Source: a virus
Lineage: Duplodnaviria; Caudoviricetes
Direction: 5' to 3' (one strand)
Virus record (IMG/VR): IMGVR_UViG_3300046710_000082
Coordinates: 1 to 35,689 of that record
Length of the DNA stretch: 35,689 bases
This document shows, in pieces, positions 18,046 through 35,689 of the stretch. The notes under the pieces were generated by a model. That model made no database searches. It was given only the letters and a program-made list of their open reading frames with translations, and was not told the DNA's origin. Both the position numbers and the translations under genes were made by a program. Position 1 is the stretch's first letter; each line of letters starts with the position of its first letter.

Positions 18046-18300
18046 TGTGGCTGATAACTGCAGCATCTGAAAGACGCGCCTTGAAAGGAACCGCGAAGGT
18101 CAAGAAGCCCAAAGAACCACCAAAGGCACCTTCTGAAGCGGCCAAGCACTCCGAGTGCTGGTGGAATTCCTGCAGTGAAAGCAGTGTGGGCAATCCAGCA
18201 GAGAGCGTGACGACCACGAATGAATTGAACGGAGCCGCTGTCCTGGGCAGTTGGCTCCTTTGAGTTCACTCGCAAGAGCGCTGAGGCGCAAAGGAGACGG
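18046..18300 (+). ncRNA. Candidate structured leader / ncRNA
   Basis: About 250 nt between the promoter and the first RBS, with nested stems (ACTGCAG/CTGCAGT, CCACCA/TGGTGG, long hairpin 18221-18268) and several GNRA-like loops. Confidence 0.5.
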
Positions 18301-18302
18301 TG

Positions 18303-18548
18303 ATGACACGCAACCAGTTGGTCAAGGCAATCAATATCACGCTTGATGAAGGGCTTGTTGACGGCAAGTTCTCTGACCTGTGGCTGGCGCGCATCCAGAC
18401 GTTGCATGGGATGGCGCTTGATTCCGCAGACTGTGTGGTGAAGGAAGGTGGCTGGAAGATGGTGGCGGCGATGAAGGCCTGGGATAAGGGCAACGATGAC
18501 ACGGCACTTGTGGCGGCGCTCAGAAGCGTCAAGGAGATGCTGATATGA
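18303..18548 (+). CDS. Hypothetical early protein
   Basis: CAAAGGAGACGG RBS; first ORF of the early operon. Confidence 0.7.
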   Translation: MTRNQLVKAINITLDEGLVDGKFSDLWLARIQTLHGMALDSADCVVKEGGWKMVAAMKAWDKGNDDTALVAALRSVKEMLI

Positions 18549-19146: not shown

Positions 19147-19180
19147 AACGCAGGACATTCGTACCAAAGGAGATGGAGAG

Positions 19181-19492: not shown

Positions 19493-19704
19493 GCATTGTC
19501 ATCGTGAGTGTGGTATTCGCTGTGCTGGGCGGTCTGACAGCGTTCTTTTGGGGTACATTCGGAGCAACCGTGATGATGATTCTGATGGGCTTCGGACTTG
19601 GACTGACCATCGGCTTCGGTATCGGAGTTGTTGTCGTATTCTTGAGACCACAATGGTTGGAGCGGATGGGATTCACTGAGGAATCATGGGGAGATGAGAG
19701 ATGA
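19489..19704 (+). CDS. Small membrane protein
   Basis: ATGA coupling; long Gly-rich hydrophobic stretch (about two TM helices). Confidence 0.65.
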   Translation: MSIVIVSVVFAVLGGLTAFFWGTFGATVMMILMGFGLGLTIGFGIGVVVVFLRPQWLERMGFTEESWGDER

Positions 19705-21181: not shown

Positions 21182-21184
21182 GGC

Positions 21185-21390
21185 GTGTATACAGAGAGGA
21201 ACTTCAAGACCAAAAAGGAACTGAAGGAAGCAGTTGCCCGTGGTGTCATCGTCAACATCTTCGGCAATCCCAAGGGTGCGGCTGACTTCACGGGAAAACG
21301 GCAAGCGTGGAGGGGCCACACTATCCCAAGCCCCACACTTGGTACGCTGAGGTTGAGATGGTCAACGGCGCTGTCGTGAAGGTAAAGTGA
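21185..21390 (+). CDS. Small conserved phage protein interrupted by a -1 frameshift at GGGAAAA (21292-21298)
   Basis: MYTERNFKTKKELKEAV.. joins ..ASVEGPHYPKPHTWYAEVEMVNGAVVKVK only in the -1 frame, whose stop overlaps the next ATG (TGATG). Confidence 0.65.
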
Positions 21391-21668: not shown

Positions 21669-21871
21669 GCATCCCGATGGCGTTCAAGACCCTGAGAGAC
21701 CACGGGTTTGTGTGTGACGTGACCACGGGCTGGTGTGAGAAGCATCAGCCCGATGGGGCTGTCCTGTTTATGAATCCGTACATTGTCACGGCTGAGGAAG
21801 TTCGTGGAGACGCTGTAAACGCTAAGGACTACGATGACGCGCTGAGGCGCGTAGAGGAAGGTGTGGCATGA
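21665..21871 (+). CDS. Hypothetical protein
   Basis: AAAGGAG RBS, GTGA overlap. Confidence 0.6.
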   Translation: MSIPMAFKTLRDHGFVCDVTTGWCEKHQPDGAVLFMNPYIVTAEEVRGDAVNAKDYDDALRRVEEGVA

Positions 21872-22935
21872 TTGTGTTTCCTGCTGGTGCGTTGAAGGCG
21901 GCAACCGCTGAAGCGAACATTGGAGCGCAGGTGCGGCTTGTCGGTGATGGTGAGAGCTTCCGCTTGGAAGCGACAAACAATGAGATGTGCGTTGTCTCTG
22001 CTGTCCTGAAGCACAACCCGTGTGACGTTCTTGACTGTGAAGTAGGTAGGGAGATGCTGGGAAAGGTTGCCGCAACGCTCAAAGGCGATGTGGAACTCAC
22101 AGCAACAGAGAGTGCCGTGACCCTGACGGCTGGCAAGGGCAAGTTCACGCTGAGTGTCCTGCAACCGATTCCGCATCCAACATATGAACCCGTGAAGGCT
22201 GGTGAAACGCTGATGCTTGCTCACGATGAGTGGGCTTGGATTTGTGACAACTTGGGAGCCGCAATCAAAGCGCGGCAGTACAACCCGTACAAGGACGTGA
22301 CGGTGTTCCCGAACAAGGAGAGTGTGGACATCGTGGGAACGTCTGGAACCTATATGTGTGGCGTTCACCTTGATGGCGTTCGTAGTCTCAGCGTCAAGCA
22401 CGACCTTCCGCTTGTCCTGTTCAGGAAAAGCCTGATAGACGTGACCCTGACCTTTGGTGAGGATGGTGTGACGGCTTCCGATGACTTCACCACGGTGACA
22501 ATGTTCTATGGCACAGCTGGCGTTCCCGATATGTACCAGACACTCCTTGACCCTGTGGAGTTCGCAACGCTGAAGTTCACAGCGGTTCAGGGTGAGAATC
22601 TGCTTGACCTGACCAAGCCAATCAGAGGCACAGCCAAGGTCAGTCTACGCTGGTACGGCTCTGACGCTGGCGGCTTCACTCCTTGTGTCCATGTGAGCAC
22701 GCTGGAAGCAAGCGACTTGGACGTGAGCGGCGATGTGGAACTTGATGGTCAGTTCGTGGTTTCGGGCATCGTGGAAGGCAACGCGCCTGTCTATACCAAG
22801 GGCTTGCTGAGGGCGCTGAAGGCGATGGAAGAGGCAGAGTTCAGGGTGCTGGTCAGCCCAAGCGCTCAGGTGGTGTTCCGTTCGCTTCATCGGTTCGCAC
22901 TTTTCATGAGGGCAACCGTGAAAGAGCCTGTATGA
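21868..22935 (+). CDS. Divergent DNA polymerase III beta sliding clamp-like protein
   Basis: 355 aa. LEATNNE, GDVELTA..VTLTAGKGKFTLSVL and IVGTSGTYM segments and the terminal ALFMR parallel DnaN (ATDLE, VATDGHRL, LxMP). Confidence 0.6.
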   Translation: MIVFPAGALKAATAEANIGAQVRLVGDGESFRLEATNNEMCVVSAVLKHNPCDVLDCEVGREMLGKVAATLKGDVELTATESAVTLTAGKGKFTLSVLQPIPHPTYEPVKAGETLMLAHDEWAWICDNLGAAIKARQYNPYKDVTVFPNKESVDIVGTSGTYMCGVHLDGVRSLSVKHDLPLVLFRKSLIDVTLTFGEDGVTASDDFTTVTMFYGTAGVPDMYQTLLDPVEFATLKFTAVQGENLLDLTKPIRGTAKVSLRWYGSDAGGFTPCVHVSTLEASDLDVSGDVELDGQFVVSGIVEGNAPVYTKGLLRALKAMEEAEFRVLVSPSAQVVFRSLHRFALFMRATVKEPV

Positions 22936-23330
22936 AACTCCTTGCCTATGACCCAAAGAAGCGCAAGAAGGTGTTGTGCGGCTTCGTGAAAGGAGACACC
23001 TTTGTACGATACGTCACCTCAGCCCACTTCCATCAACTGACGCAATCCTACGCCATTCAGGAGCATATCGTGCAGAAGCTGGTAGAGATGGACGTGAAGC
23101 ACGTTCACTTGCATACGTCTGTTGGTTATGTGCTGATGAGCCGTCTCAGCGATTGGCTGGAACCCGACATCAAGGTGCTGGACTATGGGAATGGCAAGCA
23201 GCGGTTCCTGCCCATCAAGCGGATGACCCGAAAGCCTGAGCGCGACATGGGGCAGAAGTCTCCTGATGCTGACTGGCAAGCAGAACTTGAAGCCCACAAG
23301 GGTGAGATTGAGTTCAGTCCCAAGGCTTGA
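22932..23330 (+). CDS. Hypothetical phage protein
   Basis: ATGA coupling, 132 aa, DYGNGKQRFLP motif. Confidence 0.65.
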   Translation: MKLLAYDPKKRKKVLCGFVKGDTFVRYVTSAHFHQLTQSYAIQEHIVQKLVEMDVKHVHLHTSVGYVLMSRLSDWLEPDIKVLDYGNGKQRFLPIKRMTRKPERDMGQKSPDADWQAELEAHKGEIEFSPKA

Positions 23331-23354
23331 CTTCCCGTAAAATGTTATTATAGT
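23327..23354 (+). promoter_or_regulatory. Sigma70/SigA-type early promoter
   Basis: TTGACT-N16-TATAGT (also TGnTATTAT) upstream of the 23393 ORF. Confidence 0.7.
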
Positions 23355-23392
23355 AAGGTAGCAACACACTCTGTACCAAAGGAGATGAGACG

Positions 23393-23773
23393 ATGAAGCA
23401 AGACGCACTGCACTTGGCTGTCAAGACCATCATTGACGACTGTACTTCAGAAGACAACCCTGAAGAAAAGAAGAAGTGGCTGGAAGACCTGCAACAGTAC
23501 GGCTGTGAATCGGGCATGGTTGGAGCGTTTGTTTACACCAGCGACTGCGTGGAGTTCTTTGACGAACACAAGGAAGCCATCAATACCATGCTTGCGCAAG
23601 CGATGGAAGATTGTGGCTACCACAGTCTCACGGAGATGTTTGGAGACAAGTGGTACACCGATGACCCGTTGTGCTTGGATGACCAGAACAAGAACTTGCT
23701 TGTCTGGTATGCCGTGGAGACAATCGGCAACGAGATGGAAGATACAGGAGATGATGATGAGGAACTCAACTGA
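23393..23773 (+). CDS. Highly acidic protein, possible DNA mimic (Ocr-like)
   Basis: By my count 32 Asp/Glu versus 8 Lys and no Arg in 126 aa; GCESG..VYTSD..FF motif; first gene after a strong promoter. Confidence 0.55.
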   Translation: MKQDALHLAVKTIIDDCTSEDNPEEKKKWLEDLQQYGCESGMVGAFVYTSDCVEFFDEHKEAINTMLAQAMEDCGYHSLTEMFGDKWYTDDPLCLDDQNKNLLVWYAVETIGNEMEDTGDDDEELN

Positions 23774-24092
23774 GATTCAGAAGAACGGAGTCATGCTTGC
23801 CGCTATTGATGATTACACGCTTCCGCACATCACCCTGAACGTGAACGATGGCGCGGTGAGCGTGTATGCTCATGTGAACGTACCAGCCACGCTAGACATG
23901 GACACTGACGAACGTGCGCTGTACAAGGTTGCCTACGCAGGAACCTATGTGGACTGCCGCTGTGTTGTCGGCGGCAACGATTCTGATTGGAACCGTATGA
24001 TGGAACTCCTGAGCCAAATCCGTTATCACATCAGCAAACTGGTGGAACTGTCACAGGATATGGATGTCCTGCGGCGCTTGAAAGGAGCGTGA
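23757..24092 (+). CDS. Hypothetical protein
   Basis: AGGAG RBS followed by an ATG run at 23751-23759; 3' part of the listed 23433-24092 ORF. Confidence 0.6.
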   Translation: MRNSTEIQKNGVMLAAIDDYTLPHITLNVNDGAVSVYAHVNVPATLDMDTDERALYKVAYAGTYVDCRCVVGGNDSDWNRMMELLSQIRYHISKLVELSQDMDVLRRLKGA

Positions 24093-24349
24093 GACACTTG
24101 AACACAATGCAGTATCGTGAAGCGAACCCACTCAGGAAGTGGCGCAGACGCAACAACGCCACGCAGGGCTTTGTCGCTTCGCAGATTCGCAAGACCATCC
24201 CACTATTGAGCAATTGGGAAAGCGGAGATGTGATGCCGACAGGGCAGAGTTTGGAGTTGCTGGCTGTGGTCATGGGTATGTCCACAGAATCGCTGAAAGA
24301 AGCATGGCACACGTGGCGCGAGATGCGACCAACCATCAAAAGGAGATGA
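24089..24349 (+). CDS. XRE/Cro-type helix-turn-helix regulator
   Basis: LRKWR..TQ..VA..I......LSNWESG...P......LA pattern; start could be 24089, 24098 or 24107. Confidence 0.85.
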   Translation: MRHLNTMQYREANPLRKWRRRNNATQGFVASQIRKTIPLLSNWESGDVMPTGQSLELLAVVMGMSTESLKEAWHTWREMRPTIKRR

Positions 24350-24353
24350 CCCT

Positions 24354-25064
24354 ATGGGAGACGAGCAGAGCAAGAGTGTGTTGACGACAGGCAGCCTGAA
24401 CGAACTTGGTACGGCGCTGGCTATCGCACAGGCTGAAGTCAAGAACGCGGTGCGCGGTGAGACAAACCCTGAGTTCCACAGCAGTTATGCTGACCTTGCT
24501 GCTGTGTGGGATGCTTGCCGACAGGCTCTCAGCAAGAACGGGCTGAGCGTTCTTCAGTTCACGGGAATCAGCGCTGAGGGCGCACCCGTGTTGTTCACAA
24601 CGCTTCTGCACAGGAGTGGTCAGGCGATTACAGGCACAACTCCTATCTATCTGCCACCGACAGAGCGCGTGAACAAGGAAGGCAAGACCATCCAGACCAA
24701 TATGTCGCAAGCGTTTGGAAGCGCCATCACCTATGCACGGCGCTATGCTCTTGCGGCGATGGTTGGCGTGGCGACTGAGGATGATGATGCGAACAGCGCG
24801 AACGGCGATGAGCAGAAGGCCAAGACCCACTCGCAACAGCCGTCCAAACCCGATGATGCCGCCACAGAAGCACAGAAGGGCAAGATTGTGGCGATGGCAA
24901 AGACTGTTGGCTACAAGTCCGACAAGATGGCGGCATTCTTTGCCGAGAACAAGATGGCGTGGGATGAACTGACCAAAGCCCAAGCGTCACACGCGATTGA
25001 CCTGCTGAGCAAGATTGAGAAGGCTGGCAAGGATGTTGCCGACAAGCAGGAAGGTGCGTCATGA
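24354..25064 (+). CDS. erf: ERF-family single-strand annealing protein
   Basis: NPEFHSSYADL, LLHRSGQ and QAFGSAITYARRYALAAMVGV..EDDDAN signature motifs. Confidence 0.93.
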   Translation: MGDEQSKSVLTTGSLNELGTALAIAQAEVKNAVRGETNPEFHSSYADLAAVWDACRQALSKNGLSVLQFTGISAEGAPVLFTTLLHRSGQAITGTTPIYLPPTERVNKEGKTIQTNMSQAFGSAITYARRYALAAMVGVATEDDDANSANGDEQKAKTHSQQPSKPDDAATEAQKGKIVAMAKTVGYKSDKMAAFFAENKMAWDELTKAQASHAIDLLSKIEKAGKDVADKQEGAS

Positions 25065-25747
25065 AGATTGACAAGAAGACAGGTGAAGTGCTGGATGAGC
25101 AGGGCAAGCCTGTTCCCGTCACCACTCCGAACGGTGATGTCAATTGGGATGCGTTCACAGGAGCGCCAATCAACAATATGACAGGTGAGCCGCTGACCAA
25201 GACTGACCTGCTGGACTTTGATGACAGCGCACCTGCTGCTGACATTCCTGCCGATGAGACACCGAAGGTTGCCCCTGACCCTGTTGAGGCTGAAGCACTC
25301 GCTATCGCCAAGGCGGTCAGCGTTCCCACGCCTGAGTTTGATTCCCTTGGTTCGCTGGCGCTGACAGAAGAGGAAGTGGCGCACCTGACACCTTCCAAGG
25401 TTCAATGGGCGTATCTCAAAGCGCAGGAACAGTTGGTGGCGCTGGTGCTTGAACATCGCAGGACAGGCTTGACCGCCATTGAACAGCGGCACGTCTATGA
25501 GCGTGATGCCGCCATGAAGCGCGGTGAGATTCAGTTCACGGCGACCAAGGAAGGCAAGAAGATGACCGTGGATGACCTGAAGGCATCAGTTGATATTGTG
25601 ATGGCATCCCGTGAGGCTATCGCTGAGACGTGGGAACTGATGGCTGGTGCAGGGCGTGAAGCGATTGAAGCCAAGAAGTATGAGTGTGATATGCTCAGAA
25701 GTCTCAACAGCGCTCTCCTTGCTGAATTGACCAAGGCTCAGGCATAA
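25061..25747 (+). CDS. Hypothetical protein (acidic linker plus helical C-terminus), recombination-associated position
   Basis: ATGA coupling after erf, 228 aa. Confidence 0.65.
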   Translation: MKIDKKTGEVLDEQGKPVPVTTPNGDVNWDAFTGAPINNMTGEPLTKTDLLDFDDSAPAADIPADETPKVAPDPVEAEALAIAKAVSVPTPEFDSLGSLALTEEEVAHLTPSKVQWAYLKAQEQLVALVLEHRRTGLTAIEQRHVYERDAAMKRGEIQFTATKEGKKMTVDDLKASVDIVMASREAIAETWELMAGAGREAIEAKKYECDMLRSLNSALLAELTKAQA

Positions 25748-25752
25748 GGGGC

Positions 25753-25780
25753 TTTACTTTCCTGCGAACGCACATATGAT
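25753..25780 (+). promoter_or_regulatory. Promoter for replication genes
   Basis: TTTACT-N16-TATGAT, followed by a 10-bp leader hairpin GACAGGCGCT/AGCGCCTGTC (25787-25823). Confidence 0.55.
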
Positions 25781-25844
25781 TGATAGGACAGGCGCTCATC
25801 CAGCCCTTGTTCAAGCGCCTGTCTGTTCCAAAGGAGACGGTGAT

Positions 25845-26792
25845 GTGACGAAACAGAAGTGCGTGAAGATTCCAAGCGATATTCTTCAAGCCCTTGCCCG
25901 TATTCCGTGGTTGGAGTATAGAGCAAGGGCTGTTTTGTTTCTATTGAGCAAGACTGAGCAGGATTGGACTTGCTTGACGCTCAGCGATTGGAGTTGCGGC
26001 ACTGGCATATCGCAATCGCACATGTCAGAGACCCTGAAACGCTTGGTACGACAGCATATTCTAAAAAGGACACTTCCCGTAGGTGGGAAGTCAAAACCTG
26101 CTAAGTATGGTTTCAACAGGCACTTTGAGCGTTGGCATGACTTCCCGTTAGTGGGAAGTGGTGGAGTTGGACTTCCCGTTAGTGGGAAGTCAAAAGCCGC
26201 AGAGCCTGAACAAAACAGGGCAGAGAAAAACAGCGATGACTTCCCGTTAGTGGGAAGTGGTGACCCTTCTTTTCTTTACTCTCTTGCACTTGCTTTTGAT
26301 TCTCCTAGTACAAAAGAAGAAGTACGAAAAGACGTAGTTCCTAGTACAAAAGAAGAAATACGAAAAGACGTAGTGAAAGGAATAGTAAATAAGAAAAAGA
26401 TTGTCAAGAAAAGGAAAGGACTCACTTGGGAAAGTGACCACTGGGAAGGTATCACACCTGAGTGGATTGCACTTTTGTCAAGGAAGTTCCCGACCTTGGA
26501 CGTACTAGCTGAGATTCACAGACAGGAAGCATACACAGTGACGTATCACAAGCACTATGTGAATGGTGAAAGGACAATCGGGTTCTGGCTGTTACAAGAA
26601 AGTAGCCATCACAAAGGAGATGAGAATGGACACAAACCTGAAGGACGCAATCAGCGCTTCACTGTTGCAAATCACACGGATGCGGATTATGACAATGAGC
26701 AGGATGTTATCGTTGCCGACACCGCCAGACCTCAACGATTGGACAGACCAACAGATACAGGACTTCATCAAGGAACACCAAGCGGCAGTTGA
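25845..26792 (+). CDS. Replication initiator (lambda O-like, N-terminal winged helix)
   Basis: VKIPSDILQAL..LSDWSCGTGISQSHMSETLKRLVRQHIL wHTH; internal iterons and AT-rich tract; followed by a DnaC-like gene. GTG start after CCAAAGGAGACGG. Confidence 0.8.
   Translation: MTKQKCVKIPSDILQALARIPWLEYRARAVLFLLSKTEQDWTCLTLSDWSCGTGISQSHMSETLKRLVRQHILKRTLPVGGKSKPAKYGFNRHFERWHDFPLVGSGGVGLPVSGKSKAAEPEQNRAEKNSDDFPLVGSGDPSFLYSLALAFDSPSTKEEVRKDVVPSTKEEIRKDVVKGIVNKKKIVKKRKGLTWESDHWEGITPEWIALLSRKFPTLDVLAEIHRQEAYTVTYHKHYVNGERTIGFWLLQESSHHKGDENGHKPEGRNQRFTVANHTDADYDNEQDVIVADTARPQRLDRPTDTGLHQGTPSGS
26072..26258. repeat. Four palindromic iterons ACTTCCC-N6-GGGAAGT (probable replication origin)
   Basis: Copies at 26072-26091, 26140-26159, 26171-26190 and 26239-26258. 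Confidence 0.88.
26303..26374 (+). repeat. Tandem 36-bp A-rich repeat (origin unwinding region)
   Basis: TCCTAGTACAAAAGAAGAARTACGAAAAGACGTAGT twice with one mismatch, inside an AT-rich tract next to the iterons. Confidence 0.85.
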
Positions 26793-27387
26793 AGTGGTTG
26801 AGAAGGCTCAAGCGGCTGTTGAAGCCAAGGTACGGGAGATAGATGAGCGCAACCGACAGGAGCTTGAACAGAAATTGTGGGTGCTGAAAGTGAACAAACG
26901 CCTGTCCGAGACATTGGGCGCAAGGTATCTCACCTATGACGATGCTGCTATCCCGAAGCGCGAAGCATTGTTGAAAGCAACATCGTTTGTCATCACAGGA
27001 CAGCGTGGCGCTGGCAAGTCAATGGCGCTCACATACGCACTCTACGAACGCGCTGTGGCGATGTGGAAGCATGATGTGACAGAGATTGAGGCATACAAAG
27101 CGCCTGTCCTGTTCACGCTCCTGCACAACGGCTCCTATCCAAAAGAAGATGCGGCGCTGTTCGCTATTGACGATTTGGGAACTGAGTATGGTGAGACGTT
27201 CGCACTCTCACAGTTCGGAGCGCTTGTGGAGTTCCGCTATTCGCACCTGCTTCCGATGCTGATAACGACAAACATGACCAAGGTTGAGTTCCTGAATCGC
27301 GTTGAATGGGAACGCATCTCAGAGCGCCTGTTGCAGATGTGCTCGTGGATAGTCTTCACAGGCGGCTCACGCAGGGGCTTGGCATGA
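26626..27387 (+). CDS. DnaC/IstB-like AAA+ helicase loader
   Basis: Walker A GQRGAGKS, Walker B IDDLGTE, ITTN sensor, ERISERL arginine finger; RBS CAAAGGAGATGAG before ATG 26626. Confidence 0.88.
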   Translation: MDTNLKDAISASLLQITRMRIMTMSRMLSLPTPPDLNDWTDQQIQDFIKEHQAAVEVVEKAQAAVEAKVREIDERNRQELEQKLWVLKVNKRLSETLGARYLTYDDAAIPKREALLKATSFVITGQRGAGKSMALTYALYERAVAMWKHDVTEIEAYKAPVLFTLLHNGSYPKEDAALFAIDDLGTEYGETFALSQFGALVEFRYSHLLPMLITTNMTKVEFLNRVEWERISERLLQMCSWIVFTGGSRRGLA

Positions 27388-27566
27388 GCGCTCTTGTGGT
27401 CATTGTGCTTTGCGTCTTGATTCTGGTTCTTGCCGTTGTGTACTATCGTGACGGATACAGAGACGGGCGTGAAGATGCTGAGGATGAGAAGATTGGGATG
27501 TTGCGCTGTTATCGCTGTGGCCCTTACAAGAAGGCGATGAATGAGCAAGACCGACAAAGGAGATGA
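27384..27566 (+). CDS. Small membrane-anchored protein
   Basis: ATGA coupling; N-terminal hydrophobic helix followed by GYRDG. Confidence 0.6.
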   Translation: MSALVVIVLCVLILVLAVVYYRDGYRDGREDAEDEKIGMLRCYRCGPYKKAMNEQDRQRR

Positions 27567-27570
27567 GACG

Positions 27571-28161
27571 ATGGATGTGAGAGACTTGATTGAAGAAGCA
27601 TTGACCGCTGGTGGCTTTGGCGGCTTGTTCAATGCAGAGATTCCGTGCGGTTGCCTGATTGGTGACTTGGCTCCGTGCGGTGATGAATGCCTGAATATAT
27701 CAGAGTGTCAGGCTGGCTACAAACATGACTGCGATGGTTGTTGGAAAAACGATGGAAGGCTCAACGTGAGCAATGAGTGTGATGTGGAAGGTGGTGGAAC
27801 CCAAGGCGGTTGGTGCGTGGCTCTCACAAAAGAGTTTCAGCCAAAGAAGGTTGAACCTGAGCTTGAAGATGACCCATTGTTCATACGACCTGAAGATACC
27901 AAGGTTGGAGACTACATCACCTTCAGGGCGCTTGGGAACCGCTTTGGCTCAGGGCGCGTATCCTTTGCGAGTGTCATCTGCGGCTTGGATGTGACGATGA
28001 GTGATGGCGCGATTGTTGCTTGCAATTGGTGTGACATCCTCAGCGTCCAGCGTCCACAATTCTATGAGCAACAGTTTCATGCGGAAGCCATGAGCGATTT
28101 GTTGGCGGCGATGGACTTTGCCGTGATTCAACGAGAAGTGGAGCAGGAGCGCAAACCATGA
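27571..28161 (+). CDS. Cys-rich hypothetical protein
   Basis: GFGGLFN..CGC..DLAPC N-terminal domain; RBS CAAAGGAGATGAG. Confidence 0.7.
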   Translation: MDVRDLIEEALTAGGFGGLFNAEIPCGCLIGDLAPCGDECLNISECQAGYKHDCDGCWKNDGRLNVSNECDVEGGGTQGGWCVALTKEFQPKKVEPELEDDPLFIRPEDTKVGDYITFRALGNRFGSGRVSFASVICGLDVTMSDGAIVACNWCDILSVQRPQFYEQQFHAEAMSDLLAAMDFAVIQREVEQERKP

Positions 28162-28352
28162 AAGACATGAAAGACTTGATGGAAGCAAGGGAACGGATGA
28201 ACCTGAGACGGCATCTGTGGTTCAGGTGTATGGATAAGGCAGCCCTTGCTCTTGGTACTCCGAAGGTTGGTTTGTACACAAAGGCGCTGTGGGTGCTTGC
28301 TGAAGCGTACAGCGTGTCGTGTGAGGAAGTACGGATGTTGGAGCAGACATGA
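28158..28352 (+). CDS. Hypothetical protein
   Basis: AGGAG RBS, ATGA overlaps at both ends. Confidence 0.55.
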   Translation: MKDMKDLMEARERMNLRRHLWFRCMDKAALALGTPKVGLYTKALWVLAEAYSVSCEEVRMLEQT

Positions 28353-28849
28353 AGCGGACAGTCTGGTGGAGCATCGTGATTGCTTTTATCATCGGGTTCC
28401 TGATTGGGTTCTTCATCTTGCCACAGCCCCACAGCGCCACAGCAGGTGACATCGTGAACTTCCGCAGAGAACGTCGTTTGGCTGCCATAGTCATTCCTGT
28501 TGAGAAGGTGACGACACGGGCGTCTGTGCCAGTCAAGGTTCTCTACATGGAGATTTCAGCATATTCGCCAACGGTTGCGGAATGTGATGGCAACCCATTT
28601 CGGACTGCTTCTGGCAAGACTGTGTATGTTGGAGGCATCGCGGCTGACCTGTCGGTGCTTCCTTTTGGCAGCATCGTCACCATCCCGAATTACAACGGCG
28701 GCAAGCCCTGCACGGTTATTGATACCGGCGGCGCGATTTGTGGAAACAAACTGGACGTGTTCCTATGGAGTTCACATGAGGCAATCCACTGGGGAAGGCG
28801 CAAGAATGTGAGGGTGACTGTTCTCTACATCCCAAAGAAGACACGATGA
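28349..28849 (+). CDS. 3D (Asp-Asp-Asp) domain peptidoglycan-active protein with N-terminal membrane anchor
   Basis: SAYS..TASG..IAAD..LPFGS..DTGGAI.GNKLDVF motifs. Confidence 0.9.
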   Translation: MKRTVWWSIVIAFIIGFLIGFFILPQPHSATAGDIVNFRRERRLAAIVIPVEKVTTRASVPVKVLYMEISAYSPTVAECDGNPFRTASGKTVYVGGIAADLSVLPFGSIVTIPNYNGGKPCTVIDTGGAICGNKLDVFLWSSHEAIHWGRRKNVRVTVLYIPKKTR

Positions 28850-29034
28850 GAAAACCTGCTTTCATTGATAACGCTCTTGCTCAGATTGTCGTACTGAACC
28901 GCGACAGGGAACGGATACGCAAATTGCTTGTGGACGTGCGAAAGGATGGCTATGAGGAAGGCAGGAAAAGGACTTTTGCCGACATAAACAAAGCGATGGA
29001 GACGCAGTACAAGCACAAAAAGGAGACGAAGTGA
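28846..29034 (+). CDS. Hypothetical protein
   Basis: Overlap-coupled 62-aa ORF. Confidence 0.55.
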   Translation: MRKPAFIDNALAQIVVLNRDRERIRKLLVDVRKDGYEEGRKRTFADINKAMETQYKHKKETK

Positions 29035-29366
29035 ATGACCTTGAATCGCTTGTTACTTCCAGAGAGTTGAGCCAGCAGTTGGTTGACGCTGGCATTGTGA
29101 TTCCGACAGCGCTTGTGTGGTGCGGCTCCGATATGTGGGGTCAGGAAACATGGTATATACAGGTCAGGCAGTCTTTTGAGGCAATGAGAGCAAAGCCTGA
29201 AGCCGACAGGATGGAGAATGGAGCAAGGATTGATAACCGTGGCGTGGTTGTCGTTCCTGCCCCTACGATGTCTGAACTCAAAGCGTTCCTCATGCCCGAT
29301 GACCGCACGACAACGGAGTGGTGGGCTGACGTGGTTCTGAAGGTCAAGAGCAAGAGGAAGCCATGA
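29031..29366 (+). CDS. Hypothetical phage protein
   Basis: VTSRELSQQLVDAG and PAPTMSEL motifs; AAAGGAGACG RBS. Confidence 0.7.
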   Translation: MNDLESLVTSRELSQQLVDAGIVIPTALVWCGSDMWGQETWYIQVRQSFEAMRAKPEADRMENGARIDNRGVVVVPAPTMSELKAFLMPDDRTTTEWWADVVLKVKSKRKP

Positions 29367-29467
29367 CCGCTGAGATTATTGTGCCACTCATCATTCTGGT
29401 TCTGTACGGAGCGGCGATGTTCTATGTTGGTTGGTACACGGAATACAGGAAACACCATGACACCTGA
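29363..29467 (+). CDS. Small membrane peptide (34 aa)
   Basis: ATGA overlap; MTAEIIVPLIILVLYGAAMFYVGWY hydrophobic helix. Confidence 0.5.
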   Translation: MTAEIIVPLIILVLYGAAMFYVGWYTEYRKHHDT

Positions 29468-29744
29468 TGAAACGTGGCGTTTCCGCAAAGCGATGTTCGT
29501 GTTGGAAGAACTGTCCATGTATGCTAACACCCATGATGTGCCGTTCATGGAAGGTAAGTTCCTGAACGTGTTTGGCAAGTGCGCGAGTGACATGGTGCAA
29601 CTGTTTGACCTGTTCTATCACCCACTCAGCAAAAATAGACACGCGCTGAAGATGTCAGAGACAACCTCACTTCGGGCAAACAGGGCAATCGTTCATGTCC
29701 TGAATGAGATGAACAAGACGCTTCATCCTGAGGTGAAGCCATGA
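29457..29744 (+). CDS. Hypothetical protein
   Basis: AGGA RBS before ATG 29457. Confidence 0.55.
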   Translation: MTPDETWRFRKAMFVLEELSMYANTHDVPFMEGKFLNVFGKCASDMVQLFDLFYHPLSKNRHALKMSETTSLRANRAIVHVLNEMNKTLHPEVKP

Positions 29745-30160
29745 CCGATACAGCATATACGGGCGTTCTGGTCAGTCGGGGCTTGGGTGATGTTGGGTTC
29801 ACCATCCTTACTGACCATGTTTGGTCACAAGGAATGTGGGGTGACGAAAAGAACACGTGGACGCTACAGCGCGAGAACTATCCAATGACCCACAAGCGTG
29901 AATGGTATCATGCGGCGGCATACAGAGCCGACCAACTTCAGGAGTGGCTGCTGACCGTGCCGCCATTCTCCAAGAGAGCAACGAGCATCTGTATTGAACG
30001 TGTTTTGCTCCATCGCAAAGATGAACTAGTGACCTATCGTGTGACGGTTACAACAGTCAGTGGCATCCATATCGGACTTGGTGGAACGCTCAGCGATGCG
30101 ATGGCTGATGGCGTGATGAAGATTTGGGCGATGATGCACCCGACAAAGGAGACGGGATGA
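29741..30160 (+). CDS. Hypothetical protein
   Basis: GAGGTG RBS, ATGA coupling. Confidence 0.65.
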   Translation: MTDTAYTGVLVSRGLGDVGFTILTDHVWSQGMWGDEKNTWTLQRENYPMTHKREWYHAAAYRADQLQEWLLTVPPFSKRATSICIERVLLHRKDELVTYRVTVTTVSGIHIGLGGTLSDAMADGVMKIWAMMHPTKETG

Positions 30161-30402
30161 GAAAGTTGAAGCGCACATTGGAATCAGCGCTCAGACAGGA
30201 GCGCAAACAGATGTTCCTTGGGGCTGACTATCATGTACGGCTCAGTGTTCTGTTCGTATCAGAGAACAAGACCGTTGAACTGTTTATGAACTGCTTTTGT
30301 AACGATGCGGCGCACATCTACAACAGGAACCGCGTGATGCTCAAAGCGGTCAGTCCAATCCTTATCCAATCAGCAACAGCCGATGGGCTGAAGGTGATGT
30401 GA
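30157..30402 (+). CDS. Hypothetical protein
   Basis: CAAAGGAGACGGG RBS, ATGA coupling. Confidence 0.6.
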   Translation: MRKLKRTLESALRQERKQMFLGADYHVRLSVLFVSENKTVELFMNCFCNDAAHIYNRNRVMLKAVSPILIQSATADGLKVM

Positions 30403-30737
30403 TGAGAAAGCAGAAGGCAGTCCACGACATCTTGGCTGATGCTCACTGGAAGATTGACCATCAAGCCTTCCACGGACAAGCGATGGAAGTGCTATTGAAC
30501 GTATGGCGCACGGCGATGCAGCGCGGCGAGATGCTTCAGGCTCATCGCATGGTCAACAACTACAATCACGGCGTGATGGCAGAGCGTGAGAGAATCAAAC
30601 AATTGGCAAGGCTCATGGATGTGAAGCGTGGCAATGAACCTGCAAAAGCGTGTTATGTCCTGCCAGCGGACGTATTTGGTGAAAAGCCCTTTGGCAAATG
30701 GCTGTTCGGACAATTCAATAACAAGGGCAAGCGATGA
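30399..30737 (+). CDS. Hypothetical protein
   Basis: Coupled ORF, 112 aa. Confidence 0.6.
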   Translation: MMRKQKAVHDILADAHWKIDHQAFHGQAMEVLLNVWRTAMQRGEMLQAHRMVNNYNHGVMAERERIKQLARLMDVKRGNEPAKACYVLPADVFGEKPFGKWLFGQFNNKGKR

Positions 30738-30943
30738 AGTTCACAAAGAAGAAGGCAACTGCTCCGCTGTGTCGGGAAGGCAAGAAGGTCTGTGGGCTTC
30801 TTCAGCGTGTGTGGGCTTCAGACTATTGCGTGAAGTATTGCGTCTTCCTGCCGAACGGTGAGCGAACCAAGCGATGCGTGGACGATGGCACGGGAATCGT
30901 GGACAGACCAACAGAGAGGAACTATGGACGTAAAGATAGATGA
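30734..30943 (+). CDS. Small Cys-containing hypothetical protein
   Basis: ATGA coupling; several Cys residues. Confidence 0.5.
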   Translation: MKFTKKKATAPLCREGKKVCGLLQRVWASDYCVKYCVFLPNGERTKRCVDDGTGIVDRPTERNYGRKDR

Positions 30944-31172
30944 CAAGATGGTTTTCCGCTATTTCTTGAGTTGGCAGAAAACGCTCCTGCTGGAAGGCGT
31001 GGTGGAGACGATAGAGTACAAACCCTACTATATTGTAAAAGTCATCTCAGCGGAATGGGAACATGCAATAGGCAGAAGGTATATGGTGATGGACAAGGAA
31101 GTCGTGTCAATCAATGGTATCTTGTCTGATGCTGATTCCGTGTCCATAGCGCAAAGAAAGGGCAAAGGTTGA
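30924..31172 (+). CDS. Hypothetical protein
   Basis: GAGGA RBS before ATG 30924. Confidence 0.55.
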   Translation: MDVKIDDKMVFRYFLSWQKTLLLEGVVETIEYKPYYIVKVISAEWEHAIGRRYMVMDKEVVSINGILSDADSVSIAQRKGKG

Positions 31173-31490
31173 GCCAAATGACAGCTCACACCCGTTTTCA
31201 CGTGCCTTGCGAACCAGACCTGAGCCTGACGCAAAATAGGAAGGGTAAGCAAGCCGTTCCGAACGGGTGTGAAAAGTCCGAAAACGACCGATGGAAGAAA
31301 CAGGCGGTCATTTCTAGGATGCTGTCGGGAACAGGTGTAGAGAGAAAAAAACAAGGAAGGGAAGGTGTCTGTGCGAACGGTCAATAAAAAGTTCTTATAT
31401 GCGTTATGAGCACGAAAACCACCAAGAACGCAAAATATGGAAGAAACACACGAATCTGGCGCTGGCTGACGGCGCCAACAACTGAGGTGG

Positions 31491-32015
31491 GTGATGGACA
31501 AGTCTTACTTGGATAAGGTTGAACAGGAAGATGAGAACCTACTAACACAATCAGACCAACTGCGGAACAGTCTCATCAAGGAAAACGATGTGTTGCTCAG
31601 GCTTGTCTGCATGGAGCGTGACGGCGGCTTGTGCGTAGTGTGCGGAACCAACCACACACTTCAGGTCAGCCACATCTATCCAAAGGGGCTGTACCCTGAA
31701 TTGCGCTGGAACATAGAGAATGTGGAGATGCGGTGCGTTGGGTGTCATCTGTATCGCAAGGGAAGCCCTCACATGGACCCTGCTGGGTTCGCAGACTATG
31801 TTGAATACACAATGGACAAAGGACGCAGAGACCGTCTGCACCGACTTTCCATCCAGCCGCAGGGTGGAAGCAAGGGAACCCTGTGGTTTACAGAGCAGAA
31901 TGAGGTTCTGAGACACCTGTACCTGTTGGCGTTTGGCTCTCCATACAAGGAACGCAGAGACATTGTGATGAAGGCAAAGAAGAAAGTGAGGACGTGGAGG
32001 AAAGGGAGATTATGA
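31491..32015 (+). CDS. NinG/Rap-like HNH-type nuclease
   Basis: RDGGLCVVCG, SHIYPKG..LRWNIENV..CVGCH motifs. Confidence 0.8.
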   Translation: MMDKSYLDKVEQEDENLLTQSDQLRNSLIKENDVLLRLVCMERDGGLCVVCGTNHTLQVSHIYPKGLYPELRWNIENVEMRCVGCHLYRKGSPHMDPAGFADYVEYTMDKGRRDRLHRLSIQPQGGSKGTLWFTEQNEVLRHLYLLAFGSPYKERRDIVMKAKKKVRTWRKGRL

Positions 32016-32527
32016 GCAGACCGATGAAGATGTGCAGCGTGTGCGGACATCCAGCATTCGTGCGTGGGATGCAAACAGAGAACGGTTGGGTGTGTGGCAA
32101 CTGCCTGATAAAACAACGCGATTCGTGGAAGCGGAAGTTGAGTGTGCCGATAACAGAGCAAGCGAATCGTATGCCGAGCACATGGTTCGCTGAGATTCGC
32201 GTGGACGCAATCACCGCAGACCTTGAAGCGAACGTATGGACGGCTCTGGAACTGGGCTGGCGGTTCCATCAACAACTTGTGGACGATGAGAACACCGACA
32301 AGCGTGCCGTTGGGTTGTGGCTCCTTGAAAACAACGGGCGCTGCGTCTCTGTCATCGTTGTCCTCAACCATGTTGAAGAAGGCAGGAACCGCGTTGGTGG
32401 CTATGTGTACGACCTTGGCAAGCATGGAAGGCACAAGACTTGGGTTGGACGAACCTATGGTCACGGCTGTACCTTCTACGCTGGACGCTTGGAAGTGGCT
32501 TGTAGCGAACAACAGTTGGCTGTATAA
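32012..32527 (+). CDS. Hypothetical protein with N-terminal zinc finger
   Basis: CSVCG..VCGNC; GGGAG RBS; last early gene. Confidence 0.6.
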   Translation: MSRPMKMCSVCGHPAFVRGMQTENGWVCGNCLIKQRDSWKRKLSVPITEQANRMPSTWFAEIRVDAITADLEANVWTALELGWRFHQQLVDDENTDKRAVGLWLLENNGRCVSVIVVLNHVEEGRNRVGGYVYDLGKHGRHKTWVGRTYGHGCTFYAGRLEVACSEQQLAV

Positions 32528-32528
32528 T
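32500..32528 (+). promoter_or_regulatory. Promoter for the candidate small RNA
   Basis: TTGTAG-N17-TATAAT (32500-32505, 32523-32528), about 20 bp upstream of a terminator stem. Confidence 0.6.
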
Positions 32529-32534
32529 ACTGTT

Positions 32535-32582
32535 GCTCGTCTCCTTTGGCTCCTGCTCTCGTCAAGCAGGAGCCGTTTTTTT
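32535..32582 (+). ncRNA. Candidate ~50-nt anti-Shine-Dalgarno small RNA
   Basis: 5' seed CTCGTCTCCTTT(GG) is the reverse complement of the early-gene RBS motif (CC)AAAGGAGAYGRG; bounded by a promoter and an intrinsic terminator. Confidence 0.6.
32548..32582 (+). terminator. Intrinsic terminator at the early/late boundary
   Basis: GGCTCCTGCT/AGCAGGAGCC 10-bp stem followed by G and T7. Confidence 0.9.
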
Positions 32583-32596
32583 ATGCCCTGATTCCG

Positions 32597-32648
32597 TGCT
32601 ATACTATGTATTAGGACAATATCACAGGGTGTGATAAACCTGTGATAT
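32597..32648 (+). promoter_or_regulatory. Putative late promoter (extended -10) and downstream inverted repeat
   Basis: TGCTATACT at 32597-32605; ATATCACAGG/CCTGTGATAT inverted repeat at 32619-32648 abutting the RBS. Confidence 0.55.
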
Positions 32649-32659
32649 AAGGAGATGGG

Positions 32660-33298
32660 ATGATACAAAAGACAGGAGTGGTTGTTGAGACCAAACAGGT
32701 CAAGTTGAAGGACATCCAACTCGCGGCATACAATCCACGAAAAGACCTGAAGCCCGAAGACCCTGAATATCAGAAGATTGCGAACAGCCTGAGAGATTTC
32801 GGCGTGATGGCTCCGCTCATCTGGAACAAGCAGACGGGCAATCTTGTCGCAGGACATCAGCGTCTGAAGATACTGCGGCAGGAGTTTGGGATGACTGATG
32901 AGTCTCATATCACCGTGTCTGTCGTAGACATGGACGAGACGCAGGAAGTGGAAGCCAACATTGCGTTCAACAAGGCGCAGGGCGCTTGGGATTTTGAGAA
33001 GCTGGGTATTGCCATGTTCAAGATTCCGATTGAGGAACGTATCAAGACGGCATTCGACCCACAGGAACTCGCAGTCATCTGTTCGCAGGTGCATGATGAA
33101 GCAGAAGCGTCCTTGAATGCGATAGCAGAGGAACTGTCCAACGATGATGCGGAACTGGCAAACGCAGGAGACAACGTCTCATATGTCATCATGCTCTCAT
33201 TCCCTGAAAAGGAAAAGGCAGAGACATGGGCGGTAGAGCATACGATGGATGTTCGGTTCAAGGCAAACAGCAGGACGCTTGTTGTTCGCATGGAATGA
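32660..33298 (+). CDS. ParB/Srx N-terminal domain protein
   Basis: YNPRKDL..YQKIANSLRDFG..PLIWN..GNLVAGHQRLK motifs. Confidence 0.9.
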   Translation: MIQKTGVVVETKQVKLKDIQLAAYNPRKDLKPEDPEYQKIANSLRDFGVMAPLIWNKQTGNLVAGHQRLKILRQEFGMTDESHITVSVVDMDETQEVEANIAFNKAQGAWDFEKLGIAMFKIPIEERIKTAFDPQELAVICSQVHDEAEASLNAIAEELSNDDAELANAGDNVSYVIMLSFPEKEKAETWAVEHTMDVRFKANSRTLVVRME

Positions 33299-33774
33299 TA
33301 ACCGTGGTGATTGGCGGCTCAGGCTCTGGCAAGACCACCTTTGTCAAGAGCAAGTTCCTTGACCCTCAGTTTCTTATCACTACAGACATCGTTGCTGTGA
33401 CATTGGTGAAAAAGACAAGAACGGCATTCATCGGGAAGTATGGCATCGGCATTCGCACGGAAGGCACAGATACCTTGTCCTATACAGCCATGCCGCGCAT
33501 CAAGCGACAGGTGGAGAAGTTGGACAGAGACGGCTGGAATGTCGTGCTGGAAGGTGATAGAATCAACAACAGGAAGTTCTTTGAGTGGCTTCTGATGAAG
33601 AAGTTTGACTGTCAGTTGATTCTGATGACGGCTCCGCTGGATGTCTGCCTTATGCGTCTGCGTCTCGCAGGTTCGCACATCACCAAGCCCTTTGCAACCG
33701 CAACCGCAACGAAAGCGCGGCATATGTTCCTGACATTCGGTTCGCAGATGAAGGGAGAGGTACATGGAACCTGA
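33295..33774 (+). CDS. P-loop nucleotide kinase, 5-hydroxymethyluracil DNA kinase-like
   Basis: Walker A GGSGSGKTT, IGKY..EGTDTLS and LEGDR motifs; adjacent to an aGPT-Pplase-like gene. Confidence 0.75.
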   Translation: MITVVIGGSGSGKTTFVKSKFLDPQFLITTDIVAVTLVKKTRTAFIGKYGIGIRTEGTDTLSYTAMPRIKRQVEKLDRDGWNVVLEGDRINNRKFFEWLLMKKFDCQLILMTAPLDVCLMRLRLAGSHITKPFATATATKARHMFLTFGSQMKGEVHGT

Positions 33775-34780
33775 TTATCGCAAGGAGCGCTGGGAAGGCT
33801 ACCTGAAGTATCATGCATTGATGTGTCGGACAGGAGACTGTGACCCTGCCTATCCGATGGTGATGTGGCTTGCAAAGAGATTTGCGCTCGACACGGAACA
33901 GCGGTATTGGCTTGCCTTCCTCTACTCCTGCTGTTATTGCCTTCCGACAGCATGGGCGATGTTCACGGCATTCCCATCCTATCAGGAATGTACGGAAGAA
34001 GCATTCGCACGCTATTGGCAATACAACAAGCCGACCCTTCTGTTTGAGACAGACCGCGCAAAGGTCAAGAACTTTGACGCAATCCTGCCAATGCTCGCAT
34101 CCTACAGGAAGATTGTCGGCACAAGTCAGGATGGATTCTACAGACGGGCGGCGTGGAGCGGTTCAGTCATGGGGATGTATGACCCGTATGTTGCCTATGA
34201 GCGTGTCTATGCTGCGTGTTCGCAATTCTACTACTTCGGGCGCTTCAGCTTGTTCCTGCTGCTGGAAGTTGTCAACCTTTTGACGCAACTTTCTATCCTG
34301 CCGAAGACAATGGATTTGCGGCTTGCAGAGAGTCCAAGGAACGGGCTTTGCTATGCTCTCGGAAAGGATGATTGGGTCACGCTTCACTCACGTCTGCCTT
34401 ACAGAAAGATAGATTACAACTATCTTCAGGAGAAGCTGTTGGAATTGCCCGATGCTGTTGCGAAGGCATATCCTGATGTGCCGAACACCATCTGGCGCAT
34501 TGAGACGAGTTTGTGCGGCTACAAGAAACTCTGGTGGGAATCACGCTATCTTGGTTTCTACATAGACCGCGCTCAGGTTGAACTCGCCACGGTTGCGGCA
34601 CGTTATGCCGAGATGGATTGGCAACCAGCTTGGGATTTCAGACGGCGCTATCACCCACAGGCTTTTCTTGGAGAGATGAGCGGCTGGTTCGGTGTGCGTA
34701 AAGAGAAGTTGAGCCTGTTTGCTACGACAGGGAAGTTCTGTCTGGATGAGCCGATTCCGCTTTACAGGGAGACGCTGTGA
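33764..34780 (+). CDS. Amino acid:DNA transferase-like protein (aGPT-Pplase2 family)
   Basis: GDCDP, EQRYWLAFLY, FETDR, FGRFS..LE, PRNGL, ETSLCGYKK and RYLGFYIDR motifs, matching my recollection of this HhH-glycosylase-fold family. Confidence 0.75.
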   Translation: MEPDYRKERWEGYLKYHALMCRTGDCDPAYPMVMWLAKRFALDTEQRYWLAFLYSCCYCLPTAWAMFTAFPSYQECTEEAFARYWQYNKPTLLFETDRAKVKNFDAILPMLASYRKIVGTSQDGFYRRAAWSGSVMGMYDPYVAYERVYAACSQFYYFGRFSLFLLLEVVNLLTQLSILPKTMDLRLAESPRNGLCYALGKDDWVTLHSRLPYRKIDYNYLQEKLLELPDAVAKAYPDVPNTIWRIETSLCGYKKLWWESRYLGFYIDRAQVELATVAARYAEMDWQPAWDFRRRYHPQAFLGEMSGWFGVRKEKLSLFATTGKFCLDEPIPLYRETL

Positions 34781-35181
34781 TAGTTGTGCCGCTGGACTTC
34801 GTGAAAGACCGCAAGGAAGTCAATCAACTCAGCCGTCATTCAGAGAACGCTTCTGTCCATGAAGCGGAGGCATGGATGCGTGCTGTTGAGTTCTATGGCA
34901 AGGCATTTGGCGGCATCATCCACGGCATCGGCTACTACTATGCGACACAGGCAAAGAATCACGTGCGTCTCCACGAGATTGTCGTGAAGGCGTCTCTGCA
35001 AGGATGTGGTTATGGCAGTCTGTTGTGGGAAGACCTATGCTCACGCTCTCGTCTGTTTGGCGTAGAGAGCATCACGTTGAAGTGCGAGTATGAGCCATCC
35101 AAGCGTTGGTTTCTCACACATGGAGCGGAATGCGCGGCAAGAAAAGGAGCGGTATGGGAAATGACGAAACACCTGAACTAG
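34777..35181 (+). CDS. GNAT-family acetyltransferase
   Basis: VRLHEIVV..LQGCGYGSLL acetyl-CoA binding motif A; 134 aa. Confidence 0.85.
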   Translation: MIVVPLDFVKDRKEVNQLSRHSENASVHEAEAWMRAVEFYGKAFGGIIHGIGYYYATQAKNHVRLHEIVVKASLQGCGYGSLLWEDLCSRSRLFGVESITLKCEYEPSKRWFLTHGAECAARKGAVWEMTKHLN

Positions 35182-35689
35182 CCAAAGACTACGCATCACC
35201 GCGCTGGTCAGCCGAGATACTTGACTGTTCCATGCCAATGACGATGGATACCTACAGCCTGTGTTCCTACAACTGCCAGTATTGCTTCTCGTGGTTTCAG
35301 AAAAGCCATGTCCTGACAGGCTATCTGAGCAGGGATGTGCGCGTTGTTGATACGGCAAAGGTCAAGCGACTGTTTGATGGAGCGCTGAACGGCGGCAAGT
35401 TGAACAAGACAGAGCAGCAGTTTGTTCCGTACATCCGAGACAGGAAAATCATGCAGTGGGGGGGCTTGGCTGACCAATTTGACGAGTACGAGCGCAAGCA
35501 TGGCGTAACGCTTGAACTGCTCAGGTATTTTGACAAGATTGACTATCCACTGTCGTTTTCAACAAAGGCGGTCTGGTGGACTGAGGACGAGCGCTACATG
35601 GCATTGTTCCGCAAGCATACGCACAATTGGCACGTCAAGGTGTCCATCATCACGCTGGATGAAGCGAAGGCGCGTGTGATTGAGCGTGG
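35154..35689 (+). CDS. N-terminal part of the radical SAM protein (continues at the start of the window)
   Basis: AAGGAG RBS, ATG 35154; MGNDETPELAKDYASPRW..DTYSLCSYNCQYCF contains CxxxCxxC, then QWGGLADQF and FSTK. Absent from the ORF track because it has no stop before the window end. Confidence 0.9.
   Translation, partial: MGNDETPELAKDYASPRWSAEILDCSMPMTMDTYSLCSYNCQYCFSWFQKSHVLTGYLSRDVRVVDTAKVKRLFDGALNGGKLNKTEQQFVPYIRDRKIMQWGGLADQFDEYERKHGVTLELLRYFDKIDYPLSFSTKAVWWTEDERYMALFRKHTHNWHVKVSIITLDEAKARVIER
35563..35689. repeat. Terminal direct repeat, right copy
   Basis: Identical to 1-127. Confidence 0.95.

Follow-up and report, generated by a model that had tools for sequence, protein, structure and literature searches.

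A candidate small RNA complementary to the ribosome-binding sites of early genes in a bacteriophage

Gene layout of the phage

The window, meaning the whole stretch of 35,689 nucleotides that was analyzed, is a complete circular phage genome of 35,562 bp with a terminal repeat of 127 nt. The genome is present in peat-metagenome runs, the best match among which may be its source; a Logan contig of run X1, with no differences from the window over 17000-35689, may be where this DNA came from. A search of GTDB found no prophage or host of the phage, and there are no RNA datasets among the listed holders of the stretch.

All genes with family matches lie on the plus strand of the window, as do the elements of the promoter-terminator locus and the target sites listed below. 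Genes for packaging, head, tail, and lysis extend from about 870 to 17,660, followed by an early/replication block (18,300-32,527) that includes genes for a clamp-like protein, a helix-turn-helix (HTH) protein, Erf, a DnaC-like loader, and a NinG/HNH protein, besides many ORFs with no family match. Beyond this block lies a DNA-modification cassette (32,660-35689, continuing through 1-887) encoding a ParB-N protein, a P-loop kinase, an amino acid:DNA transferase (ADDT, E 5e-17), and a GNAT protein. An ORF that begins at about 35154 crosses the origin of the sequence and carries a radical-SAM-like CxxxCxxC motif. There is no integrase among the listed family matches of the window proteins. The HTH protein is of the XRE type (24098-24349; Pfam HTH_3, E 5e-6), so the statement of an earlier note on this DNA that the phage has no CI-like gene was too strong.

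Two early promoters are predicted, at 18013-18040 and 23327-23354. Folding of the 259-nt early leader shows nothing out of the ordinary (z -1.2), and Rfam offers no noteworthy match to it. The leader does contain a hairpin with CTCCTTT (18225-18265), and a long hairpin with a GCAA loop (19102-19146) lies upstream of ORF 19181. Among the late genes, the endolysin frame (16613-16640) has no ATG, GTG, or TTG near its AGGAGG, in the window or in a related phage (G001, described below). In both, the frame reads ACG-AAC-ATC (T-N-I-I/V-Q-K), which suggests that the endolysin may have a conserved, noncanonical ACG start.

The last early ORF (32012..32527) encodes a protein of 171 amino acids with an N-terminal Cys motif, for which no match was found in annotated phages. 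In the ESM Atlas, the protein shares 167 features with clusters of Rep_1 (rolling-circle Rep) at a feature score of 0.93, a resemblance to be taken as a lead only.

A predicted promoter, single-stranded 5' end, and terminator

At the end of this ORF the earlier note had pointed out a promoter of the form TTGTAG-N17-TATAAT lying just upstream of a strong terminator, and both are there. The -35 element (32500..32505) matches the consensus at three of six positions, and because of this the promoter at 32500-32528 is missed by a promoter scan. The -10 element (32523..32528) overlaps the TAA stop codon of the ORF. Judging from the geometry of the promoter, transcription would start at G32535 and continue to the end of an intrinsic terminator (hairpin plus U-tract, 32547..32582), found by terminator scan and by folding. 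The terminator (32547-75 plus T7) is the top match of the terminator scan, with a folding energy of -19.9 kcal/mol (z -5.2). For the note's transcript of about 50 nt, the predicted length is 48 nt (32535..32582).

The predicted RNA consists of a 5' end of 13 nt, a stem of 10 bp, and U7. The 5' end (32535..32547), henceforth the seed, is predicted to be single-stranded (96% unpaired), and similar values (98% and 90%) are predicted for the corresponding RNAs of two related phages, G001 and G002. Within a longer 3'-UTR, the same seed is predicted to be unpaired to 35-64% as against 90-98% in the short RNA. Since the -10 element overlaps the stop codon, the small RNA could also be the processed 3' end of the early mRNA. 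Rfam gives no match at gathering score anywhere in the window, and matches at the locus are at the level of chance (E 0.8 or worse). The loop of the terminator repeats the CUCGUC of the seed (within 32548-32576). GGAGCCG occurs in several hairpins, with no telling enrichment.

Downstream of the terminator there is an extended -10 sequence (TGnTATACT, 32597..32605), predicted to belong to a separate promoter; one of the same class occurs at 5225 before the scaffold gene. It is followed by an inverted repeat of 10 bp (32619-32648) with a nested TATCACA/TGTGATA palindrome. The repeat, a possible operator or leader hairpin, lies directly 5' of the ribosome-binding site (RBS) of the parB gene.

An extended Shine-Dalgarno sequence at early starts

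The seed is complementary to AAAGGAGAYGR. This motif has 10 matches in the window (the mean in shuffled sequence is 0.11 and the maximum 1), nine in the sense orientation and one, the antisense copy at 32537-47, within the seed. Each of the sense copies lies just 5' of the start of an early gene, and these are the nine starts that the earlier note had named. They serve the first gene (18303) after the early promoter at 18013-18040 (motif at 18290..18300), ORF 19181 (19166..19176), a DUF7222 gene (23393) that is first after the early promoter at 23327-23354 (23378..23388), erf (24339..24349, where the TGA of the motif is also the stop codon of the HTH gene), a putative replication initiator (25845; 25830..25840), the DnaC-like loader (26626; 26613..26623), and ORFs 27571 (27556..27566), 29031 (29019..29029), and 30157 (30145..30155). 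The gene at 25845 does sit before that of the loader, but it has no family match, so it can be called an initiator by position only.

There are further sites of this kind. As the note had it, the RBS of the ParB-N gene (32660-33298), which is TAAGGAGATGGG (32648..32659), is complementary to the seed, and it might be paired both in trans and, in a read-through RNA, in cis. A target-type RBS precedes ORF 19701 (19687..19698), and weaker ones precede ORF 18545 (18530..18541) and the GNAT gene (34777) of the DNA-modification cassette (34765..34776). A second site within the first codons of erf (24356..24367) gives the strongest predicted duplex in the genome, at -22.4 kcal/mol.

A matrix built from 14 target-type sites, which were selected with a filter informed by the seed, scores the antisense copy at 17.2 bits and the next site on the minus strand at 11.9; only 0.024 matches scoring as well as the antisense copy would be expected on the whole minus strand. 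One high-scoring motif (17251) lies inside codons of the endolysin gene, away from any start. The antisense copy might have been the RBS of a minus-strand gene, but that was ruled out, as there is no start codon at Shine-Dalgarno (SD) distance from it.

The partition between early and late genes can also be seen when starts are called without reference to the seed (35 early, 23 late). The base following AGGAG is A in 12 of 15 early instances and never G, while at late starts it is G in five of seven and never A (p=1.6e-4 for A versus G). Consistent with the earlier note, all six sense copies of AGGAGG fall within the structural/lysis block, and there is none in the 14.5 kb of the early region, which has 18 copies of AGGAGA. 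The note's further claim that AGGAGG mismatches the seed has to be softened, since G.U pairs allow it to pair, but the pairing ends short and the predicted duplexes are weaker: seven late starts give -8.4 to -13.4 kcal/mol, the 10 named targets -14.6 to -19.3 kcal/mol.

The unit in related phages

Related phage records were reached through the 3D-domain gene and erf, and of the 31 that were searched, two (G001 and G002, 83% identical to each other over 32 kb) carry the unit of promoter, seed, and hairpin. In both it lies 3' of a homologue of ORF 32012 (25-27% identity) and 5' of a homologue of ORF 871, the latter a putative small terminase, judging from its position. Constant across the three genomes are the TTG of the -35 element, the 17-nt length of the spacer, TATAAT, the 6 nt from there to a G at +1, and TCRTCTCCTT, whereas the codons of the spacer and the sequence of the hairpin vary. 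The seed of G001 and G002 is GCGUCAUCUCCUU, that of the window GCUCGUCUCCUUU. The terminator scan does not pick up the hairpin of G001, and G001 and G002 both have short U-tracts. In all three genomes a separate extended -10 sequence lies 3' of the terminator, and the first start after it has a GGAGATG site. The first cistron is the ParB-N gene in the window, and in G001 and G002 it is an ORF of 17-18 codons that precedes the homologue of ORF 871.

Some further observations concern the same region. The ORF of 17-18 codons (MRRM.HKT...; 13469-13522 of locus L265 and 12591-12647 of locus L420) is conserved, overlaps the homologue of ORF 871 at its start, and has a seed-complementary RBS. The terminator stems differ, and the 3' arm of that in the window (32548-32576) resembles the 5' arm of those in the relatives (L265 13368-13389; GCRGGAGCCGT); CGUCA is found in the loops of all. 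Extended -10 sequences of the class TGnTAYAMT lie before late blocks (window 5225 and 32597; G001 24951, 31169, and 46869; G002 22010 and 28317, those of the relatives in oriented coordinates), several of them with a mis-spaced TTGACA upstream. They may be activator-dependent late promoters. Arrays of 8-9 DnaA-box-like 9-mers lie 5' of the early operon at about 5830-6140 of G001 and about 3830-4130 of G002 (again oriented), but there is no such array before the early operon of the window. The arrays may mark an oriC-like or plasmid-like origin.

Protein searches also brought up relatives with 82-92% identity. Pattern scans found the unit in 2 of 41 viral stretches (G001 and G002 only), a pattern scan of metagenomes in 2 of 62 stretches, these being a copy of G001, and a final scan of the clade in the same two records. 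Among ParB relatives and capsid relatives (144 loci), no unit of anti-SD sequence and terminator had a promoter on the same strand as the genes. Viral contigs scanned with a loose pattern (at least 120 stretches) gave only background, with no locus having more than two other copies of the motif. In two unrelated contigs (L056 and L057, 10001-10020), TATAAT is accompanied by a CAUCUCCUUU stretch and a strong terminator, with no nearby enrichment of the motif; possibly this is another small RNA. Reads from three runs mapped to the G002 locus revealed no variants.

For the earlier note, relatives that keep the motif but lack the seed would refute the idea. Enrichment for AGGAGAYGR is confined to the genomes with the unit: there are 12 instances in the window (11+1), 18 in G001 (13+5), and 16 in G002 (12+4), whereas the remaining 29 records have 0-5 apiece; all of these lack the unit, and several are fragments or near-duplicates. 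Shared ancestry could carry the motif and the unit together, as G001 and G002 are the closest to the window in their early-gene content.

Differences between seeds are matched at motif-type starts

If the seed reads the RBSs, then one might expect each to follow changes in the other, a check that the note had also recommended. Considering all starts with RGGAGANG, pairing is better with the phage's own seed than with the other (there being just two seed types to compare) at 11 of 14 in the window, 9 of 11 in G001 (p=0.001), and 7 of 10 in G002 (p=0.004). C, which can pair with the G of the window's seed, occupies the opposing position in 5 of 14 window sites, but where the relatives' seed has A, C opposes it in 0 of 11 sites of G001 (p=0.038) and 1 of 10 of G002. 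The RBS of ORF 27571 offers a swap between orthologues: it has G where the window's seed has C, and its counterparts in G001 and G002 have C where the relatives' seed has G. A C/U difference between the window and G001 at the putative initiator was considered as another such swap and was not counted, because the two proteins are not detectably homologous.

The agreement does not extend to all early starts. Over all that were called, there is no preference for the phage's own seed (p=0.49 and 0.34), so the covariation holds for the motif-type starts and the one orthologous swap. Early starts do pair better than late starts with the own seed (p=0.021, 0.071, and 0.022 in the window, G001, and G002), but in G002 a generic anti-SD sequence separates the two classes as well as the seed does, and the advantage of the seed over the generic sequence, early over late, is significant in the window only (p=0.015 vs 0.33 and 0.31). 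Moreover, AGGAGG is kept at 12 of 27 and 13 of 25 early AGGAG-type starts in the relatives, the erf RBS of the window is better suited to the seed of the relatives than to its own, and the orthologue of 23393 in G001 lacks the motif.

What might account for the motif and its reversed copy?

The unit is a real, conserved, and nonrandom feature. We consider it moderately probable that 32535-82 acts in trans as an anti-RBS small RNA that damps translation of early and replication genes, as the earlier note had proposed. Conservation of the unit, the unpaired state predicted for the seed, and the differences that seed and targets share between lineages speak for that part of the proposal, while the roles of switch and repressor attached to it have been weakened. 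The targets are likely to be about a dozen early, replication, and DNA-modification genes bearing a phage-specific extension of the SD sequence, AAAGGAGAYGR. At the level of sequence, the support comes from the partition of the motif, its single reversed copy, the conservation of the unit, and the matched differences between lineages.

Much of this might be had without a free RNA. Hairpins that hide an RBS are known from the late genes of T4, and the seed might do no more than fold onto the first downstream RBS in read-through RNA, so that the gene would be open to translation only in transcripts from its own promoter downstream, the early motif having some other cause. The pairing of seed with RBS is predicted at a probability of 0.99-1.0 at all four lengths considered in the window, at 0.97 at 125 nt in G001, and at 0.62-0.76 at three of four lengths in G002; the parB RBS is predicted to be 98% open in the transcript from the window's downstream promoter; GGAGATG is found at the first downstream start of all three genomes; and the terminators of the relatives are weak. 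Yet the terminator of the window is strong, pairing drops to 0.02-0.05 at longer lengths in G001, and 9-13 distant early starts whose motif tracks the seed between lineages are left unexplained. We therefore regard occlusion in cis as unlikely to be the whole story. A cis role on the next RBS is plausible, being no less feasible in silico than the trans role, and the two may coexist. Perhaps instead the reader of the motif is a protein: an RNA-binding repressor, a nuclease like RegB of T4, which cuts GGAG sites of early mRNAs (PMC3014915), or a protein bound to an asymmetric DNA operator, the reversed copy lying over +1. A change in the specificity of such a protein would shift all copies jointly, compatible with the observed covariation, and besides its HTH gene the phage has many early ORFs that match no family. 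Against this, the departures seen in the targets are those that G.U pairs permit, the reversed copy falls exactly on the 5' end that a short terminated RNA would expose, the RegB consensus (GGAGRAYARAA; PMC3014915) differs from the motif, and no RegB family appears among the best five matches of each of 52 proteins. A protein reader seems to us distinctly unlikely.

The remaining alternatives we deem improbable. The motif may reflect nothing more than ordinary SD variation or the 3' end of the host's 16S rRNA, the reversed copy being incidental. AAAGGAGATGA is one change from a full SD sequence, its TGA often doubles as a stop codon (as it does for the genes upstream of the motifs at 24339 and 27556), nearly all of the relatives' sites have the ATG form, and the canonical anti-SD sequence used here may not be that of the host, none having been found in GTDB. 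But AGGAGG is what this phage's structural genes use, a canonical anti-SD sequence mismatches the C form (5 of 14 sites), and GGAGATG occurs 32 times in 346 kb from 19 related loci without the unit, as opposed to 11 and 15 times per 20 kb in G001 and G002. The reversed copy, too, with its chance of 0.024 per strand, recurs at a syntenic spot. Least probable of all is an arrangement akin to that of lambda, whose late promoter pR' makes a short leader terminated at tR' until a Q-type antiterminator allows it to be bypassed; here the RNA would be a by-product. In all three genomes, the last early gene is indeed followed directly by a promoter and a short terminator, with the late block after them. 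However, all three have a separate extended -10 sequence past the terminator, of a class that recurs before the scaffold gene, the protein encoded upstream has no Q-like match, and the complementarity would go unexplained.

How the small RNA might act

Supposing that the RNA acts in trans, host RNA polymerase would initiate at G32535 from the outset of infection, and the RNA, protected by its hairpin, would accumulate. The seed would pair over the SD sequence and spacer of target mRNAs, preventing binding of the 30S subunit, and the translation of early and replication genes would be progressively capped: a delayed negative loop, confining early expression to a pulse. Structural genes would escape, as their AGGAGG sites pair more weakly by 4-8 kcal/mol. 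In read-through transcripts, the seed would hide the next RBS in cis as well. Because the targets include the first cistrons of both predicted early promoters along with erf, the putative initiator, and the loader, translationally coupled neighbors would be starved too.

Since the promoter should need no late factor, a delayed negative loop is the simplest timing. The earlier note had imagined an early-to-late switch, but a promoter resembling those of host sigma-70 would fire from the start of infection, the first gene past the terminator is seed-complementary in all three genomes, and in the relatives roughly half of the early AGGAG-type starts still have AGGAGG. Its other suggestion, a substitute for a repressor, loses force given the HTH gene. 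We lean modestly toward delayed shut-off over a repressor of a dormant or carrier state; what can be said for dormancy is that the first downstream cistron is a target and that G001 and G002 have DnaA-box arrays (the window has none).

The timing of phage gene expression is attributed to proteins: repressors, sigma and anti-sigma factors, antiterminators, and RegB. It is possible, though we advance it tentatively and with rather more doubt than the action in trans, that the phage has built a regulon that dispenses with protein, in which a private SD tag on early and replication genes, one that the ribosome can still use, is read by a 48-nt RNA that turns off the class as a whole while structural genes, with the standard SD sequence, escape, and that the same logic explains the start-associated sequences (SAS) with their reversed copy, discussed below. 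If so, then a tiny RNA that sorts classes of genes by one or two bases adjacent to the SD sequence would constitute a new kind of infection timer, and there would be a direct test for the SAS motifs. The two natural sets of seed and RBS amount to a ready-made compensatory experiment and to a minimal, potentially orthogonal translational switch. In the open full-text literature we found no phage RNA aimed at a class of the phage's own early RBSs.

Comparison with known systems

The nearest published layout is that of the SAS of cluster K mycobacteriophages and cluster EF Microbacterium phages, conserved asymmetric repeats that contain an SD sequence and occur at the starts of nonstructural genes (PMC3203893, PMC7302621). 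Pairing with 16S rRNA does not fully explain them, the authors allow for an RNA or protein partner, and in four K1 phages a single copy, not near any start, faces the other way (PMC3203893, PMC7302621); the motifs have lacked an explanation since 2011 (PMC3203893). AAAGGAGAYGR is likewise a one-way, SD-containing repeat at the starts of nonstructural genes, with a single opposite copy (32537-47) off any gene start. It does not conform to the 13-bp consensus given there, sharing only AGGAG with it, and the reversed copy of the window differs in forming the predicted single-stranded 5' seed of a promoter-terminator unit and in varying in step with its targets. Anaya has 14 sense SAS and one reversed copy within 33,000-60,835. 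The reversed copy (at about 26790-26900 of locus L442) is in the intergenic gap between genes 96 and 97, 3' of a long hairpin, and its CCUCCUAUCC core is predicted to form a 10-nt loop on a GC stem. Pixie (40,000-61,147) also has 14 sense SAS but no reversed copy at up to two mismatches, so by this check the RNA model does not extend to cluster K as a whole.

The c4 antisense RNA of P1 and P7 pairs in trans around an RBS in its own phage's mRNA and blocks translation (PMC12197685). c4 controls one antirepressor message by means of loops, while the 48-nt RNA would use a linear 5' seed against about a dozen targets. There is, moreover, no Rfam match to c4, nor any antirepressor family among the listed matches of the 52 proteins.

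C-rich anti-SD small RNAs of bacteria, such as RsaE of Staphylococcus aureus, expose an unpaired CUCC-type motif that would pair with the SD sequences of several mRNAs. The candidate RNA resembles them in that its seed is predicted to be unpaired and complementary to the RBSs of several separate mRNAs, and seed and target change together, as far as motif-type starts and two seed types go. The geometry of its predicted promoter and terminator is conserved in three genomes, the terminator being strong in the window and undetected in G001. The difference is that RNAs like RsaE belong to the host and have scattered targets, whereas here the targets would form one class, the early genes of the phage itself, which carry a private extension of the SD sequence. 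In the icaR 3'-UTR of S. aureus, an anti-SD motif beyond the stop codon pairs with the SD sequence and blocks initiation (PMC3868564). That pairing takes place in cis within one mRNA; here the motif would be released as a free RNA by a predicted promoter.

RegB of T4 is an endoribonuclease that inactivates early mRNAs as a class through the GGAG of their SD context, sparing late ones (PMC3014915). It is a protein, while the discriminator here appears to be RNA. By analogy, then, the 48-nt RNA would work in the manner of c4 and the C-rich anti-SD small RNAs and to an end like that of RegB, a member of none of these groups, and in its layout it stands closest to the SAS.
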